Source: Candidatus Woesearchaeota archaeon (GTDB lineage: Archaea > Nanobdellota > Nanobdellia > Pacearchaeales > GW2011-AR1). Taken from it: DNA of 47,371 bases. The position numbers were made by a program, and so were the translations under genes. Of this stretch, positions 14,135 to 25,837 are shown one piece after another. The first letter of the stretch is position 1. The number at the start of each line of letters is the position of its first letter. The notes below the pieces were generated by a model. That model had not been told where the DNA came from and did not search any database. It saw only the letters and a program-made list of their open reading frames with translations. The DNA lies in assembly GCA_012798335.1 (NCBI GenBank), contig JAAZNJ010000004.1, positions 1-47,371 of the forward strand, given 5' to 3'.

Positions 14135-14224
14135 GGCTCTGTAGCTCAGTGTTAGAGCGCTGCTCTCATGAATAATTAGTGTTGAGAAAGGCAGAGGTCG
14201 GGAGTTAAATCCTCCTCAGAGCCA
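14135..14224 (+). tRNA. tRNA with CAT anticodon (elongator Met or Ile2) and an 18-nt intron at 14171-14188
   Basis: Acceptor stem GGCTCTG/CAGAGCC plus A73, D-arm GCTC/GAGC, anticodon stem CTGCT/GGCAG, loop CTCATG|intron|A, T-arm GGGAG-TTAAATC-CTCCT. Loop CTCA pairs with intron TGAG in a BHB-like central helix. Confidence 0.8.
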
Positions 14225-19390: not shown

Positions 19391-19495
19391 AGTTTCGCAA
19401 TTTTAGTCTTAAAAAAATAAGGAAATAGAGTTCTATTAACTTATTGTTGGTAAAATCTGCTTTGAATGTCAATTTTTAAAAAGTTTAAATCAGGT

Positions 19496-19684
19496 TCATA
19501 AGTTTTTTGATATCCTTATCGCTACATGTGTATAAATTTGTGTCTTTTTCAAGTTCTTATGCCCCAATAATTGTTGTATATATTTTATATCTGAACCAAT
19601 TTTTAATAAGTGTGTTACAAAACTATGTCTTAATGTGTGAGGTGTCATGTTCTTCTTAATTTTGAACGAAATTCCTTGTTGCAT
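19496..19684 (-). pseudogene. Tyrosine recombinase (Xer/IntI-type integrase) C-terminal remnant, 62 codons
   Basis: [42 protein letters not shown] carries the HxxR, second His and catalytic Tyr boxes. A stop codon lies 2 codons upstream of the first Met, so the ~200+ N-terminal residues are absent. Confidence 0.75.
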
Positions 19685-19779
19685 ATTTTATAAAAAAAGA
19701 AAGTGCTTAATTAACAAGAATAAGCCAATTGATTGCAAACTTTTTCCTATTAAAGTTAAATTTTTGGGGGCGGGTTGCA

Positions 19780-19856
19780 CTCTCGCTTTGCTCGGGGCAA
19801 TTAACGAGAATTTAACAGTTCATGATTCGGCTCACCCTCACCCAAATTTTTCTGAT
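19780..19856 (+). repeat. Direct repeat A, left copy (77 nt; 4 mismatches to 25720-25796)
   Basis: ctctcgctttgctcggggcaattaacgagaatttaacagttcatgattcggctcaccctcacccaaatttttctgat aligns without gaps to the right copy. Confidence 0.9.
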
Positions 19857-19952
19857 TACTAATGAGGGGTTTCACAAATAAAAAATGTAAAGAAATATAA
19901 ACAAATACGATCTTTTTAATATAAGTAAATAATAACTATTTAAGGTATAAAT

Positions 19953-21029
19953 ATGCTTGATAAATTTATGAATAAAATTGTAAGAGGAGATTGTATTCAA
20001 GTCTTAAAAGAAATACCGGATAATTCAGTAGATTTGATTTTCGCAGACCCTCCTTACAATTTACAACTTCGTGGCGAACTTTGGCGACCAAACCAAACTA
20101 AAGTAGATGCTGTGAATGATGAATGGGATAAATTTAATAGTTTTGAAGATTATGATAAGTTTAGTCAAGAATGGCTTAAAGAATGTCTACGTGTTTTAAA
20201 AGAAAATGGAACTATTTGGGTTATCGGTTCTTATCACAATATTTTTAGAATTGGGAAAGTTATGCAAGATATAGGTTTTTGGATTTTAAATGACGTTTTG
20301 TGGATTAAAACTAACCCTATGCCTAATTTTAAGGGGACAAGATTTAATAATGCCCACGAAACTTTAATTTGGGCATCTAAAAATAAAGATTCAAGATATA
20401 CATTCCATTATAAAACTATGAAAGCATTTAATGATGATTTGCAATTAAGAAGTGATTGGTATATTCCCATTTGTAATGGTGGAGAAAGAATAAGAATAAA
20501 CGGAGAAAAAGCACACTCCACCCAAAAACCAGAAGCATTACTTTACAGAATTATAATTTCTACTTCAAATCCTAATGATATTGTGCTTGACCCTTTTATG
20601 GGAAGTGGAACAACAGGAGCAGTTGCTAAGAAATTAGGAAGAAACTTTATCGGAATTGAAAAAGAAGAATATTATATAAAGATAGCAAATGAAAGAATAG
20701 CTAATGTTAAACCTTATGCTCATCAAACTTTAGCTTATCCTCTTGAAGCTAAAAAACCTAAAGTCTCATTTGGAAATTTAATAGAAGCAGGTTTAATAAA
20801 ACCTGGAGAAAAGTTGTTCTCAAAAGACAAAAGACATAAAGCAGAAGTTTTGACAAATGCAACAATAGTTTTAAATAATATTTCTGGCTCAATTCATAGT
20901 GTTAGCGCACAGGCATTAGGCAAAACTTCTAATAATGGCTGGACATTTTGGTTCGTTGAGAGAGATAATAATTTAAAAAGTATAGACGATTTAAGAAAAG
21001 AATATATGGAAAAGTATATTACTTTATGA
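19953..21029 (+). CDS. N6-adenine DNA methyltransferase, beta class, CcrM/M.HinfI family (probable GANTC specificity)
   Basis: 358 aa, near-colinear with CcrM. Shared segments: DLIFADPPYNLQL, VDAV.D.WD.F.SF..YD.F, IWVIGSYHNIFR.G, GFWILND..W.K.NPMPNFKGTRF.NAHETLIWASK, H.TQKPEALLYRII, LDPF.GSGTTGA.AK.LGR.FIGIE, SGSIH. Confidence 0.9.
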   Translation: MLDKFMNKIVRGDCIQVLKEIPDNSVDLIFADPPYNLQLRGELWRPNQTKVDAVNDEWDKFNSFEDYDKFSQEWLKECLRVLKENGTIWVIGSYHNIFRIGKVMQDIGFWILNDVLWIKTNPMPNFKGTRFNNAHETLIWASKNKDSRYTFHYKTMKAFNDDLQLRSDWYIPICNGGERIRINGEKAHSTQKPEALLYRIIISTSNPNDIVLDPFMGSGTTGAVAKKLGRNFIGIEKEEYYIKIANERIANVKPYAHQTLAYPLEAKKPKVSFGNLIEAGLIKPGEKLFSKDKRHKAEVLTNATIVLNNISGSIHSVSAQALGKTSNNGWTFWFVERDNNLKSIDDLRKEYMEKYITL

Positions 21030-21033
21030 GGTG
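21028..21033 (+). promoter_or_regulatory. Shine-Dalgarno-like GAGGTG for the endonuclease gene, overlapping the methylase stop
   Basis: tGAGGTGttaatATG places the motif 5 nt upstream of the ATG at 21039. This suggests translational coupling of the M and R genes. Confidence 0.4.
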
Positions 21034-21038
21034 TTAAT

Positions 21039-21902
21039 ATGATAATGGACTTTGAACAATTCAAAAGCATTCTTAATAAAAAGATTTTTGAAGAATCAAA
21101 AGCTAAACTTATTGAAAATATAGCAAAATCTCCAAGTAGGTATATTGGGCTTTTCAGACCCACAAAACCCAAAGCCAAAATTTTACAAAATCTCTTACAA
21201 TCTCACGAAATTCGTTTTGGTGATGCTTTTGAAATTCTGATAGAAGAATATCTAAAGAAGTTTAGTTTCACCATACTTGAGAAAAAGTTCTCAACAACCA
21301 ATGAAGAGGAGTTAAACATAGACCAATGTTTTAAGAAAAATGGTAAGATATATTTTGTTGAGCAAAAAGTAAGAGATGATCACGATTCAACAAAGAAAAG
21401 AGGGCAAATACAAAATTTTGAAAAGAAACTTAATGAGATGATAAATAAACATGGTGAAAACAATCTTATAGGAATTTTTTACTTTATAGATTCTGAACTG
21501 AAAAAGAACAAGAACTATTATGATACCGAACTTAAAAGAATGTCAAAAGCGTATGGAGTTACTTTACATTTATTTTATGGTGAAGAACTTTTTACATTCT
21601 TGGGACATTCTGAAATTTGGAAAGAAATTTTGAAATATTTAGCTGATTGGAAAAAAGAAATTCCAGAATTGCCAGAAACCAACTTTGATTTAAATACACA
21701 AAACAGTTTTGAAGAAATTAAAGATTTAAACCCTGCTTGGTTTAGAAGTATATTTGATAATGATGAGGTTTTTAATGACATTATCTTAACAATCTTCCCA
21801 GAAAAGAAAACTTTAAAGTTGCTTTTTGAATACTTTAAAACAAAATCTTCTGAAAAGACAATCTATAAAACTCTAACTGAATCATTAAAAAACAGGATTT
21901 AA
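21039..21902 (+). CDS. Putative type II restriction endonuclease partner of the CcrM/HinfI-like methylase
   Basis: Starts 9 nt after the methylase stop. It has a PD-(D/E)xK-like signature NID-x12-VEQK. No other family was recognised. Confidence 0.55.
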   Translation: MIMDFEQFKSILNKKIFEESKAKLIENIAKSPSRYIGLFRPTKPKAKILQNLLQSHEIRFGDAFEILIEEYLKKFSFTILEKKFSTTNEEELNIDQCFKKNGKIYFVEQKVRDDHDSTKKRGQIQNFEKKLNEMINKHGENNLIGIFYFIDSELKKNKNYYDTELKRMSKAYGVTLHLFYGEELFTFLGHSEIWKEILKYLADWKKEIPELPETNFDLNTQNSFEEIKDLNPAWFRSIFDNDEVFNDIILTIFPEKKTLKLLFEYFKTKSSEKTIYKTLTESLKNRI

Positions 21903-21908
21903 GTAAAA

Positions 21909-22006
21909 CTCCCCTAAAAAAAGTAAAAAAAGATTGTCCCCCTCGATTCTTGTTCTTGATGTGTCGCATTCGCTCATTTGATAGAACGCCACTAAAAATT
22001 ACTTTG
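21909..22006 (+). repeat. Direct repeat B, left copy (98 nt, identical to 24620-24717)
   Basis: ctcccctaaaaaaagtaaaaaaagattgtccccctcgattcttgttcttgatgtgtcgcattcgctcatttgatagaacgccactaaaaattactttg is identical at both sites by eye. Confidence 0.9.
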
Positions 22007-22359
22007 CTGACGCAAGTTTCCAGAACTCCGCTTTGCTCGTAACTGGAAACGAACTTAACAGGAATTTAACTGTTCGCAGGGTCGCTTCGCCTAAAACACC
22101 AAGCGTTTTCCCCTGCTCTCCCAAATTCAAAATTTGTGGAATGCCCCAAAATTCCTCCGCTCTGAAAAATAAACTTCATTTAATCGCACATGTTCAACGA
22201 AATTCAGGGGGCTAACGAAGGGGGCAATTTTATTATTTAAAGGCGAGAAAACTATTTCCGAAAATCTTCCGGAAAAATCATCACAAAGTTTATATACTTT
22301 AATGTTTTATTAAGTAATATTCGTAAATTAACTAAAAAACTTTGAGGGCGCAAAACAAA

Positions 22360-22692
22360 ATGGCAAGTCAAGCATTAGAGCAAATCTTAGAATTTGCACC
22401 AATTTTTGGGCAGACACGAATGTATCGAACAATAGATAGATACACAAGCGGAACAACAAAATTGTATAGCTTCGATCCACCTGGATTAATGAATCAACAA
22501 CCATTTCAATTCGGATATGATTTACCAGGAACAAACACACAGTTTCATTTTCATGGACCTGATGCTGATCACTTAACTTATGGTAAACTGGTAGATTACG
22601 ATAGAAACACCTTGTTTGAAGAAAAAAATAGTTTCAACTTAGCAATGAATGACTTAAGATTTGATCAAGGCGGATTTAAAAAGTTCCCTTAA
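22360..22692 (+). CDS. Hypothetical protein (110 aa)
   Basis: The track ORF starts at a TTG at 22342; the first ATG is at 22360 (MASQALEQ...). No motif recognised. First gene of the block bracketed by repeat B. Confidence 0.4.
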   Translation: MASQALEQILEFAPIFGQTRMYRTIDRYTSGTTKLYSFDPPGLMNQQPFQFGYDLPGTNTQFHFHGPDADHLTYGKLVDYDRNTLFEEKNSFNLAMNDLRFDQGGFKKFP

Positions 22693-22729
22693 TTTTTTTA
22701 TTTCTTTTAAGATTATTTGAGGTAATAAA

Positions 22730-23011
22730 ATGAAAGAATTGGAAATAACGATGGTTAAAGATCTCATCAATGTTTATCAATCTTATTTTGAAAAAGGTCT
22801 TACAGACGAAGTAAAAAAAAACGCTAAAGAGATTGAAAGTAAATATCTTAATTCTTCTCCAATTGTCAGATCAGATTTAACAAACGCGAAAGGAAAATTA
22901 ACCTATTTTTACGCAGATATTCCACCAGGACCTATAAGCAAAATTGAAGCAAAAAAAATTGTCTTGAATCTTGAAAAATTAAAACATAAATTGGAAAATG
23001 ATAACTCTTGA
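22730..23011 (+). CDS. Hypothetical protein (93 aa)
   Basis: GAGGT lies 7 nt upstream of the ATG. Its 3' end overlaps the next ORF by 14 nt, which suggests an operon. Confidence 0.45.
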   Translation: MKELEITMVKDLINVYQSYFEKGLTDEVKKNAKEIESKYLNSSPIVRSDLTNAKGKLTYFYADIPPGPISKIEAKKIVLNLEKLKHKLENDNS

Positions 23012-24068
23012 TTCTATTTTGCTTGATGCTTCTTCTTTTGTTAGTTCTGAGTTTGGTTTTGATGTTGAGCAATCAAAATTAAAGCCTTATTCTCCGGAGA
23101 ATTGGCAAGAGTTTTGTCAAACTAATAATTTTGATATAAATAGTTCTGGAATTTATGTTCCTGCTTCTTATTCTGCATATGTTAGAACAGATAGTCTTTT
23201 TTTAACTTCTAATATTTTTCATGAATTTTATGGTCATGGTTTGTTTGTTGAACATTCTCAAATTGGGAAAAGATTAACTGAAATAATCCAAAATAATGGT
23301 GATGAAAAAAGTTTTATGTTTGATGAGATCAGTCCTCAAGAACAAACTTTTGGTATTGCAAAACACAATATTCACAATTATGAGGGTTTTGCTGTTTGGC
23401 TTGAAGCTTTGCTTTGCAATGAAACAGGTAATTCTAAAGTTTGGCAATTAAAAAGAGATAGATTGCCTGATGATTTTGTTTCATTGTTCGAATATTTTCA
23501 GGATGTTGAACAAAGATTTTCTCGTTTTGGCTTAATTTCTCAGATGGGTTTTCCTAAACACTATGATGATGATAAAGTTTTAGGTGTTGTAAGAAAATTA
23601 TATGGTTCTAATTTTAATAATGTTGATTTTGTTGTTATTTATGGTTCTCAGAAACCAGAAAGCGATATTGATTTATGCGTTGTTTCAAGTAATCCTTCAA
23701 CTCAATATTTTAACGGTTGGCTTGATATTGCAGAATTAAATAGAGAAGATTTTCAAAATCGAATAAATAATTTAGATATTGCTCTTACTGATGCAATGTT
23801 TTCAGGAAGATTAATATTTGGAGATGGAATTACTTTTCATCAATATAAACAAACTATTTTAGAAAAACCAATTTCACAAGAGATGATTGAATATAATAAA
23901 CGAAAATCGAAATTACAAAAAGAATATTTATCTAGTTATCGAGATAATGATAGAACGAAAAAATTGTGTTTATCTTATATTAATAGTTTTTCTCAAAATG
24001 CTGAACAACTAATTTTAGGAAATAAACCTCTAACTTTAAAAACTCTTCAACAACTTTATAAATGTTAA
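22998..24068 (+). CDS. Fusion protein: N-terminal unknown domain with an HEFYGH motif plus a C-terminal minimal nucleotidyltransferase (Pol-beta fold) domain
   Basis: VVIYGSQKPESDIDLCVV fits the GS-x(n)-DxD motif of NTP_transf_2-type nucleotidyltransferases. The N-terminal half has FHEFYGHGLF...YEGFAVWLE, which looks like metal-hydrolase motifs (HExxxH, not the classical HExxH). Confidence 0.55.
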   Translation: MITLDSILLDASSFVSSEFGFDVEQSKLKPYSPENWQEFCQTNNFDINSSGIYVPASYSAYVRTDSLFLTSNIFHEFYGHGLFVEHSQIGKRLTEIIQNNGDEKSFMFDEISPQEQTFGIAKHNIHNYEGFAVWLEALLCNETGNSKVWQLKRDRLPDDFVSLFEYFQDVEQRFSRFGLISQMGFPKHYDDDKVLGVVRKLYGSNFNNVDFVVIYGSQKPESDIDLCVVSSNPSTQYFNGWLDIAELNREDFQNRINNLDIALTDAMFSGRLIFGDGITFHQYKQTILEKPISQEMIEYNKRKSKLQKEYLSSYRDNDRTKKLCLSYINSFSQNAEQLILGNKPLTLKTLQQLYKC

Positions 24069-24083
24069 AGTGTTTACAAAAAT

Positions 24084-24545
24084 ATGGATAATAATAACTG
24101 TATATTTTGCAAAATCGTAAAAGGAGAAAGTCCTTGTCATAAAATTTGGGAAGATGAAAAACATCTTGCTTTTTTATCAATCTTTCCTAATACTGAAGGT
24201 TTTTCTGTGGTCATACCAAAAAAACATTTTTCTAGTTATGCTTTTGATCTGCCTGATGAAGTATTAAAAGATTTAGTAATTGCATCAAAAAAGGTCGCAA
24301 AATTAATAGATTCTAAACTAGAAGATGTTGGAAGAACAGGAATGATTTTTGAAGGTTTTGGTGTAGATCATGTCCATGCAAAACTTTTTCCAATGCACGG
24401 TACTTCTGATATGAAGAAATGGAAAGAAATTAAATCAAATGTCAACAAATTTTTTGAAAAATATGAGGGATACATTTCTTCACATGATTATAAAAGAGAA
24501 GATGATGAAAAGTTGAAGAAACTTGCAGAAAAAATAAGAAACTAA
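24084..24545 (+). CDS. HIT-family (histidine triad) nucleotide hydrolase/transferase
   Basis: CIFCKIVKGESPCHKIWEDEKHLAFLSIFPNTEGFSVVIPKKH is the typical HIT N-terminal half. The triad region reads VDHVHAKLFP, with the third His replaced by Lys as read. Confidence 0.75.
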   Translation: MDNNNCIFCKIVKGESPCHKIWEDEKHLAFLSIFPNTEGFSVVIPKKHFSSYAFDLPDEVLKDLVIASKKVAKLIDSKLEDVGRTGMIFEGFGVDHVHAKLFPMHGTSDMKKWKEIKSNVNKFFEKYEGYISSHDYKREDDEKLKKLAEKIRN

Positions 24546-24619
24546 TTCTTTTAGAAAAAGAACCAAAATAAAAGCCCCCTCTAAAATCTTCTTTTTAAAA
24601 AAAAGAAACAAAAAAGCCC

Positions 24620-24717
24620 CTCCCCTAAAAAAAGTAAAAAAAGATTGTCCCCCTCGATTCTTGTTCTTGATGTGTCGCATTCGCTCATTTGATAGAACGC
24701 CACTAAAAATTACTTTG
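24620..24717 (+). repeat. Direct repeat B, right copy
   Basis: Identical 98 nt to 21909-22006. Confidence 0.9.
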
Positions 24718-24774
24718 ATTTCTTCCAGTGGAACATTGCATTAAAAATTAATTCCTCCAAGGATTCGTGGGCAA

Positions 24775-24860
24775 CTAACAGCGATTAAGAAGAAAATCCT
24801 TGCAGGATTTTGCCCAAATTTTCACTTCGTGGAAACTTCTCTTGATTGCATATGTTAGGC
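24775..24860 (+). other. attC-like imperfect palindrome ending in a GTTAGGC core
   Basis: Layout: CTAAC-a-GCGATTAAGAAG-[AAAATCCT tgc AGGATTTT + 24 nt]-CTTCTCTTGATTGC-atat-GTTAGGC. The outer CTAAC/GTTAG arms and the inner 12-14 nt arms pair, with 1-2 unpaired bases. Confidence 0.4.
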
Positions 24861-24923
24861 GTAATTTTCGGGAGCGCAACTTTTTAAGAACTTTTATAAA
24901 CATTTAGAACAATTACTATAAAT

Positions 24924-25670
24924 ATGGGGGTATACAATAAACCACTTTACTATGAAATTGCATTTAGCTTTGTTGATGCAAAAAAACAAGTAGACTTGTT
25001 TGAGAAATTTATTGAAAAATATAGCAAGATAAAAGTAAAAAGAGTTTTGGATATCGCTTGTGGACCAAGTTTGCAGTTAAGGGAACTCGCAAAAAGAGAT
25101 TATGAAGTTATTGGTTTAGATTTGAGTCTACCAATGTTAAAATACCTGCAAGAAAAAGCAAAAGAGGAAGGTGTTAGAATAGATACTGTTAAAGCAAACA
25201 TGACAAATTTTAAACTAAAAAAGAAAGTTGATTTTGCTTTTATAATGATGGGGTCATTTAGATTCAAAAATAATGAAGATCTTTTAAAACATCTTGATTG
25301 TGTTTCAAATTCGCTCAAGAATGGAAGTTTGTATCTTATTGAAAATATGGAATTAGATTGGCTAAGTTTCAAACCTCAAAGCTGGATCATGAAAAGAGAT
25401 GGAATTGAAATCAAGACAACTTACAAACTAAAACAAAAAGATCCAATTTTTCAAACATCCGAAGAAATTATTAGTTTAGAAGTGAATGATAATGGCAAAA
25501 AATTAAAATTCGTTGAAAAAAGAATTATGAAACATATTTATCTTCAAGAATTTCTGGCTCTTGTTAAATTAAATAATAAATTTGAATTTCTTGGTCAGTT
25601 TGAACGCTTCAAATTCAAAAAATTAAAGAAAGGATGTATGGATAATATTATTCTTTTGCGTAAAAAGTAA
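24924..25670 (+). CDS. Class I SAM-dependent methyltransferase
   Basis: Motif I is VLDIACGPS. An acidic residue after beta-2 appears in VIGLDLS. Length is 248 aa. Substrate unknown. Confidence 0.75.
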   Translation: MGVYNKPLYYEIAFSFVDAKKQVDLFEKFIEKYSKIKVKRVLDIACGPSLQLRELAKRDYEVIGLDLSLPMLKYLQEKAKEEGVRIDTVKANMTNFKLKKKVDFAFIMMGSFRFKNNEDLLKHLDCVSNSLKNGSLYLIENMELDWLSFKPQSWIMKRDGIEIKTTYKLKQKDPIFQTSEEIISLEVNDNGKKLKFVEKRIMKHIYLQEFLALVKLNNKFEFLGQFERFKFKKLKKGCMDNIILLRKK

Positions 25671-25719
25671 TTGTGATGCGCTCCCGAAAACTTCTCCGCT
25701 ACGCTACGACAACTCTGAG

Positions 25720-25796
25720 CTCTCGCTTCGCTCGGGGCAACTAACAAGAATTTAACAGTTCATGATTCGGCTCATCCTCACCCAAATTTTTCTGAT
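25720..25796 (+). repeat. Direct repeat A, right copy
   Basis: 77 nt with 4 mismatches to 19780-19856. Confidence 0.9.
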
Positions 25797-25837
25797 ATAA
25801 TAATGGAGATGATGGCTAACAAAACCTGAAATAGAAA

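Follow-up and report, generated by a model that had tools for sequence, protein, structure and literature searches.

An archaeal palindrome that probably serves an attC-like role in gene-cassette arrays beside a XerA-like recombinase

The window analysed here, a low-GC (about 26%) archaeal contig of 47,371 nucleotides that encodes ribosomal protein S8e, TFIIB and an Lsm protein, carries an imperfect palindrome at positions 24775-24860, which a first-pass annotation had likened to an integron attC site. Based on comparison with related genomes, we consider it likely, with a probability of roughly 0.75, that this palindrome is a recombination site that takes the part of integron attC in a gene-cassette system of DPANN and some other archaea, and that it is served by a dedicated XerA-like recombinase. 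In the layout that we propose, a XerA-like recombinase gene is followed by an attI-like site and then by co-oriented cassettes, each of which closes with an element of 85-210 nt. The element would fold as single-stranded DNA into a three-way structure made of an invariant outer R stem (TAACA/TGTTA), a covarying L stem of 11-12 bp and two hairpins around an unpaired CCCAAAT, and the folding strand would most likely be the complement of most cassette genes. The recombinase would exchange strands at GTT, with circular cassettes entering via the attI-like site and leaving by recombination of one element with another.

The element family, its covariation, the array architecture and orientation, the junctions at GTT and a rule of complementarity between neighbouring elements are all findings of sequence comparison. 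The broader proposition, for which we see about even odds, is that these arrays are a widespread archaeal counterpart of the integron, built on a dedicated XerA-like paralogue and large folded single-stranded DNA sites that recombine at GTT, that this counterpart explains at least some of the integrase-less arrays known from archaea and that it is either an independent invention of the integron or a surviving relative of the Xer-type ancestor from which integron integrases came. Integrons are the textbook gene-capture platform, and a plain-Xer system built on the same principles would illustrate how platforms of this kind can come about. If true, it would also offer a possible reason why most archaeal cassette arrays appear integrase-less and provide a testable enzyme and site pair for single-stranded DNA recombination in archaea.

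The palindrome and its structured family

The coordinates and letters reported for the palindrome all proved correct when checked against the sequence. Its outer arms, CTAAC (24775-24779) and GTTAG (24854-24858), are present, the inner arms GCGATTAAGAAG and CTTCTCTTGATTGC (L'' and L' in Table 1) form a stem that includes two G:T pairs and leaves one or two bases unpaired, the inner hairpin AAAATCCT-tgc-AGGATTTT (hairpin 1) is perfect, and the right end reads GTTAGGC, which fits GTTRRRY. As a single sequence, the palindrome is barely above chance, since its top strand folded as DNA reaches -12.5 kcal/mol with z = -2.0 (6 of 200 shuffles were equally good) and its bottom strand, whose folding had been proposed as a check, reaches -8.4 kcal/mol with z = -0.25. 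The significance of the palindrome derives from homology and not from single-sequence folding.

A DNA search of relatives recovered sequences with 72-91% identity to the flagged element across other genera, families and orders. From six copies, five taken from relatives plus the flagged copy, we built a covariance model (R1), and because R1 missed a copy in the second spacer of the window, a broader model (R2) was built from 53 matches, which represent 51 distinct sequences. Of 101 relatives, 38 contain members of the family, as do 67 of 150 genomes sampled from the class (about 45%), and these come from many families. Homology of elements across families reaches E-values of about 1e-15 to 1e-21. 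The statistics reported here overstate, as the sequences are related and not independent. All members follow one plan over 85-210 nt, namely TAACA, a covarying stem, a hairpin, an invariant CCCAAAT, a further hairpin, the stem again and ATGTTA. In aligned copies, the left part runs from yTAACA through a 12-nt arm (consensus GCGATTAAGAGG) and a variable hairpin to CCCAAAT, and the right part from a second variable hairpin through ACTTC, the complementary arm and a spacer of 2-4 nt to GTTA.

The pairing itself is supported by compensatory change. Six aligned copies contain compensatory changes in the outer stem and in both hairpins, and RNAalifold returns a three-way fold for them in which double changes preserve 9 of 29 pairs. 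Across 49 model-aligned matches, 90.3% of cells pair, compared to 70% after shuffling and 37-47% when the partners are slid, and compensatory double changes occur at 21 of the 29 pairs, counts that lean towards the model's structure because the alignment was fitted to it. The outer TAACA/TGTTA R box shows zero variation in these matches, and the L stem carries double compensatory changes at 9 of its 12 pairs, indicating that structure is conserved there rather than sequence. Covariation within an inverted repeat could alternatively reflect a dimeric protein that binds duplex DNA without any folding.

Folded as DNA, the minus strand is the better one in 45 of the 51 distinct elements (mean -20.4 versus -18.4 kcal/mol; p = 8e-8), and it remains better in 47 of 51 with RNA parameters. 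Among the plus-strand loops of these elements, GCTTCGC occurs 16 times, CTTCGG 14 times and TTGCA 24 times, which means that the minus strand bears GAA and GCA triloops, including GCGAAGC. GNA triloops are a hairpin motif known from single-stranded DNA rather than RNA, and GCGAAGC forms a single-stranded DNA hairpin of unusual stability, an apex that is also present on the bottom strand of the aadA7 attC. Together, these features suggest that the substrate is the strand opposite most cassette genes. In this family, R and L are set apart by 0-1 nt on one side and by 2-4 nt on the other, without a symmetric unpaired spacer. On the minus strand, which folds better, it is the 5' arm that carries both the TT/AA bulge and the spacer.

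The flagged copy itself is the third weakest of the 51 elements by minus-strand fold and folds better on the plus strand. Three of its substitutions convert stem pairs to G:T, which on the minus strand become A:C mismatches. We regard the copy as probably inactive; at best, it would be a poor substrate for the intact recombinase on another contig of the same genome (C46, described below). Rfam searches at gathering and permissive thresholds returned no family at the flagged element, and a scan for tRNA and tmRNA found none there, making a tRNA-derived attachment site unlikely. We also considered small ORFs in the spacer that holds the element, none of which was convincing.

Table 1. Coordinates of the flagged element, its parts and other features of the window
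Feature	Position	Strand	Remarks
Flagged element	24771..24862	+	R1 85.7 bits (E 7e-19), R2 73.9 bits (E 1.6e-15); consensus structure and covariation
R'' CTAACA	24775-24780	+	Part of flagged element
L'' arm	24781-24792	+	Part of flagged element
Hairpin 1	24793-24811	+	Part of flagged element
Invariant linker CCCAAAT	24813-24819	+	Part of flagged element
Hairpin 2	24819-24835	+	Part of flagged element
L' arm	24836-24849	+	Part of flagged element
Spacer ATAT	24850-24853	+	Part of flagged element
R' GTTA	24854-24857	+	Part of flagged element
SAM-methyltransferase cassette module, TGTTAGGCG to CTAACA	24853..25746	+	83% identity over 935 nt to G038:C3
Island, recombinase stump and all cassettes	19430..25827	.	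6,398 nt; flanked by direct repeat
Tyrosine recombinase stump, 62 aa, C-terminal	19496..19684	-	PF00589, E 1e-16
Left half-element GGGGCAATTAAC ... CCCAAATTTTT, without right arm	19780..19856	+	Direct repeat of 25720-25796
Left half-element 3' of methyltransferase gene, without right arm	25720..25796	+	R2 14.7 bits, E 0.69
Decayed long-type copy, second spacer	22051..22200	+	R2 27.2 bits, E 6e-4
98-nt box, identical to 21909-22006	24620..24717	+	Conserved 5' extension preceding long-type elements elsewhere

Cassette arrays and the crossover point

Arrays of same-strand elements, with one to several ORFs between neighbours, occur in seven genomes (G018, G042, G047, G093, G023, G022 and G031), where they begin 0.2-1 kb from the 5' end of a divergent tyrosine recombinase gene. 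We collected 80 loci through the recombinase protein and scanned 78 of them for elements, and all 34 element matches lie upstream of the recombinase gene and on the opposite strand. This orientation is kept in G031 even where the cassette genes point the other way, and individual elements have no target duplications. Going by the labels of the metagenome assemblies, the loci come from Woesearchaeota, Pacearchaeota, Aenigmatarchaeota, Iainarchaeum, Bilamarchaeaceae, the DHVE2 group and Thermoplasmata.

Most array-clade recombinase homologues (loci L088-L141) have their 5' side only 50-700 nt from a contig end, an expected effect of hypervariable arrays on assemblies, which suggests that metagenome assemblies are routinely interrupted at cassette arrays and that the arrays are under-counted. 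Five loci labelled DHVE2 group (L115-L119) have a variant attI-like site, GATTATGCG-N5-CGCATAATC followed by TAAA and then GTT, whose arms are different and self-complementary, and L115 has an element upstream at 49.9 bits. By these assembly labels, which call for the usual caution with metagenomes, the system also appears to occur outside DPANN archaea.

We examined the junctions in these loci for the position of the crossover. The attI-like site (...TCTCGCTTAATAGTTGTT) is common to 28 loci and lies about 94 nt from the start of the recombinase gene. Its consensus, ...TATTAAGCGAAyATTTATCTCGCTTAATAGTTGTT, forms a dif-like palindrome in which a 9-nt spacer separates two 11-nt arms, with the junction 2-3 nt outside the palindrome, and in the G093 and DHVE2 loci the arms are different yet still self-complementary. 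Directly past GTT, divergence among the 28 loci is complete except for a weak AnnnnnAAT pattern.

A cassette shared between the window and another family gives the same boundary. The methyltransferase cassette of the window starts at the flagged element's GTTAGGCG, and its counterpart in G038 (contig entry G038:C3) is the first cassette beside the recombinase gene. The two become homologous precisely at TGTTAGGCG, where the flagged element has its right end, so that GTT|AGGCG is a real cassette boundary. The G038 cassette ends in a full element, in place of which the window copy has the second left half-element of Table 1. By homology, then, the flagged palindrome is a real, weakened copy of the array site that marks the start of the methyltransferase cassette. 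A second shared cassette, between G018 and G093 (78% over 955 nt), was uninformative about the boundary because its flanks have diverged. We also observed an inverted repeat (24858-24878 and 25677-25697, with a 14-nt perfect core) that brackets the methyltransferase gene and its promoter; the G038 cassette keeps a similar bracketing pair, with some differences.

Where cassettes circularise, the 6 nt past the GTT of one element are expected to be the reverse complement of the 6 nt preceding the next TAAC. Over 37 adjacent pairs of elements, the mean number of matches was 3.03, compared to 2.12 when both ends came from one element and 1.89 when pairs were drawn at random (p = 4e-6 and 1.4e-3). 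Judged by eye, the step between the attI-like site and the first element follows the rule 6/6 in each of G018, G038 and G093, and a small contig of the window's own genome (C35) has two good elements that obey it. The window breaks the rule, with 1 match between the second and third spacers and about 3/6, by eye, between the third and fourth. Collectively, the divergence past the attI-like GTT, the start of the shared cassette and the complementarity rule place the crossover within TGTT, as in integrons.

The recombinase and competing explanations

To place the recombinase, we built a tree of 35 Xer-type proteins. The array-linked enzymes of G093, G038 and G042 and the C46 copy of the window's genome form a clade of four with 100/100 support, the G018 enzyme is its sister branch, and a separate clade of 19 members, presumed to be housekeeping XerA, has no elements nearby. 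Genomes G038, G042, G023 and G022 possess both kinds of Xer-type gene. By phylogeny, the array enzyme is a XerA-like paralogue distinct from the presumed housekeeping XerA. The C46 contig of the window's genome (G000:C46:5443-5540; L065 2444-2541) carries, besides its intact array-clade recombinase, a complete attI-like palindrome, CTATTAAGCGA-N9-TCGCTTAATAG, followed by TT and then GTT; beyond it we found no significant element, only a remnant, AAACTTCTCTTAACCG, about 150 nt on.

The resemblance of this enzyme to ordinary XerA invites the explanation that mobile elements have merely piled up at a dif-like site by way of the ordinary XerA, with no dedicated cassette platform, for which the dif-integrated elements of Vibrio and the pdif modules of Acinetobacter are models. 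The best profile of the array-linked recombinase is archaeal XerA NF040815 (206-234 bits, cut-off 220), the protein is collinear with XerA structures 4a8e and 5hxy, the attI-like site has the palindromic form of dif with its two 11-nt arms, and the one Xer-type gene detected in G018 adjoins the array. We nevertheless judge a pile-up of this kind unlikely, because in G038, G042, G023 and G022 the array-linked enzyme sits in a separate 100/100 clade while the other clade is element-free, and because the attI-like site is held at its fixed distance from the recombinase gene throughout the 28 loci. It is less likely still, and about as improbable as the RNA reading that follows, if not slightly more so, that the palindrome is a canonical integron attC recombined by a classical IntI, whether archaeal or class 1. 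Its AAC...GTT ends, its GTTAGGC terminus, its imperfect inverted repeats with a variable centre and its length are all in keeping with attC, and integrase-less archaeal attC arrays have been published for the same phylum (PMC9668308). Nonetheless, TIGR02249, the integron-integrase profile, exceeded its cut-off neither here nor in any of 61 relatives; the array-linked recombinase scores 180-216 bits against the required 265, its hits skip model positions of about 182-236, and it has 14 residues where IntI4 (2a3v) has 59, so that the IntI-specific insert is missing. The attC covariance scoring that the first-pass annotation had called for was carried out with a proxy for the IntegronFinder model, built from nine experimentally recombined attCs (Ghaly 2022, Data S10), and it gave no match at E<=10 with filters off on the flagged element or on 15 elements of three loci (L056, L058 and L066), from which we conclude that the element is not a classical attC. 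The CCCAAAT core, moreover, is absent from nine attC sequences taken from PMC9668308. The integron-attC proposal is thus supported as far as a structured, recombination-type site with a cassette boundary is concerned and unsupported as regards a canonical attC. Likewise, the length is in the attC range as had been stated, while the bulged bases are on the opposite arm.

A structured RNA, such as a 3'-UTR stabiliser, a terminator or a small RNA co-transcribed with the cassette genes, would account for the strong covariation in the three-way fold as RNA folding, and it draws further support from the G:T pairs of the window copy, which favour the coding (plus) strand, and from the position of the element between same-strand genes. 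We hold this to be quite improbable given that Rfam returns no match, that the antisense strand folds better in the great majority of elements even with RNA parameters, that the minus strand bears GNA triloops and that RNA would leave unexplained both the fixed orientation to the recombinase gene, including that in G031, and the logic of the GTT junctions. The least probable account by far is a miniature inverted-repeat transposable element or a chance palindrome in an AT-rich spacer. The terminal inverted repeats, the weak fold statistics of the single sequence and the 8-nt duplication around the whole island would suit it, but the copies occur solely in co-oriented arrays next to a single gene family, they have no per-element target duplications and their homology spans families at the E-values given above; we rejected a miniature transposon on the distribution and fixed orientation of the elements. 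Against the cassette-system reading that we prefer stand the failure of the complementarity rule in the window, the plus-strand preference of the flagged copy, the 3' element of the methyltransferase cassette, which is unlike that of G038, and the 8-nt duplication around the island, since integron-type recombination produces none.

Read as a cassette system, the arrays share with integrons a recombinase gene divergent from a co-oriented array, a neighbouring insertion site, crossover at GTT, cassettes that end in a foldable imperfect palindrome of the form AAC...GTT, covarying stems, the complementarity rule and an apex of the GCGAAGC type opposite most genes, comparable to that of the aadA7 attC. 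The inverse core RYYYAAC...GTTRRRY with crossover at G|TT is present in the TAACA/TGTTA boxes and TGTT junctions, and co-oriented arrays that obey the complementarity rule are found in relatives and on C35, not in the window. They differ from integrons in an array enzyme that groups with archaeal XerA and is without the IntI-specific insert, in an attI-like site that is itself a dif-like palindrome, and in elements that leave the proxy attC model silent, carry an invariant unpaired CCCAAAT and a second hairpin, and have neither the symmetric central spacer of about 5 nt per side between R and L nor extrahelical bases on the bottom-strand 3' arm, their bulges being on the other arm. Long, sequence-conserved attCs are known from sedentary chromosomal integrons, for example the Vibrio cholerae repeats, and the integron integrase is thought to have descended from Xer-type recombinases.

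The CTX phage of Vibrio integrates at dif by Xer recombination on folded single-stranded DNA. It shares with the archaeal arrays a Xer-family enzyme that acts on an imperfect-inverted-repeat hairpin in single-stranded DNA, and differs in that it is one phage genome that uses the housekeeping XerCD and the chromosomal dif, with no dedicated paralogue, adjacent attI-like site or multi-cassette arrays. According to a review (PMC8371274), XerA also binds stem-loop structures, and dif is a single-copy site of 28 bp with 11-nt arms, a 6-nt spacer and cleavage at the spacer edges. The arrays have in common with archaeal XerA/dif the protein family and its length and palindromic sites with 11-nt arms; they differ in multi-copy elements of 85-210 nt, in a junction 2-3 nt beyond the palindrome and in the use of a separate paralogue, and their dif-like arms are found in the attI-like site only, with its 9-nt spacer as opposed to the 6 nt of dif. 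Archaeal integrons with six true IntIs, together with many integrase-less arrays, some of them in Pacearchaeales, were described by Ghaly et al. 2022 (PMC9668308); the attCs tested there are canonical and GC-rich, and the motifs of our element family were not found in those supplementary files of that paper that were searched. A search of the literature for a Xer-linked archaeal cassette system turned up only this study and general reviews, and we found no published description of such a system.

A broken array fragment in the window

The flagged element lies within an island that is bounded by an 8-nt direct repeat, GAAATAGA, at 19422-19429 and 25828-25835. In sibling assemblies with identical Lsm and S8e proteins, the island is absent and the two genes are 101 nt apart, and Lsm and S8e are contiguous in most of 16 same-genus genomes. 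The empty site reads GAAACAGA. No transposase gene was found within the island, and the 8-nt duplication points to insertion of the island by transposition or through microhomology rather than by integron-type recombination. Array fragments would thus also travel in a second way, in which 8 nt of the target are duplicated.

The recombinase gene has lost its attI-like site and about 200 N-terminal residues; the stump that is left retains HxxR, H and Y and shares 81-83% identity with the array-linked clade. We considered a split integrase of the SSV type and rejected it, as there is no N-terminal half and no junction tRNA and the stump belongs to the array-linked clade. At the break point of the stump (19664-19683), the plus strand reads GAAATTCCTTGTT|GCATAT, which resembles a long-type right arm plus GTT, and, speculatively, the recombinase gene may have been cut by recombination at a long-type-like site. 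The island further contains a restriction-modification pair, a four-gene block with a HIT gene last and the methyltransferase cassette; the HIT gene is a single-gene cassette in another array.

The other sites of the island are similarly disordered. The spacer with the flagged element had been described as the only one with both arms, a description that we amend, since the copy in the second spacer also has both, in decayed form. This copy has many non-standard pairs and is chimeric, its left arm (of GGAATTTAAC type) being mismatched to its right arm (CTTCATTTAATCGC), and it aligns with long-type copies in G093, G047 and locus L133. In the remaining two spacers we found just the two left half-elements, which are 95% identical over 77 nt, and the one nearer the stump has no significant match with R1 or R2. 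By comparison with intact arrays, the window locus is a dead, transplanted array fragment, with a truncated recombinase, scrambled sites and a weak copy of the element.

The 98-nt box that occurs twice in the island is not cassette-specific. Its core, GTCCCCyTyGATTCTTGTTCTyGATGTrTCGC...TTGATAGAACGCC, also precedes the long-type elements of G093, G047 and L133, with 72-81% conservation. Just before the TAAC box, a covarying hairpin is present in the G093, G047, L133 and 21909-22006 copies and absent at 24620-24717. Elsewhere in the window, Rfam reports a 90-nt tRNA at 14135-14224 (54.5 bits), on which ARAGORN is silent and which probably carries an intron.
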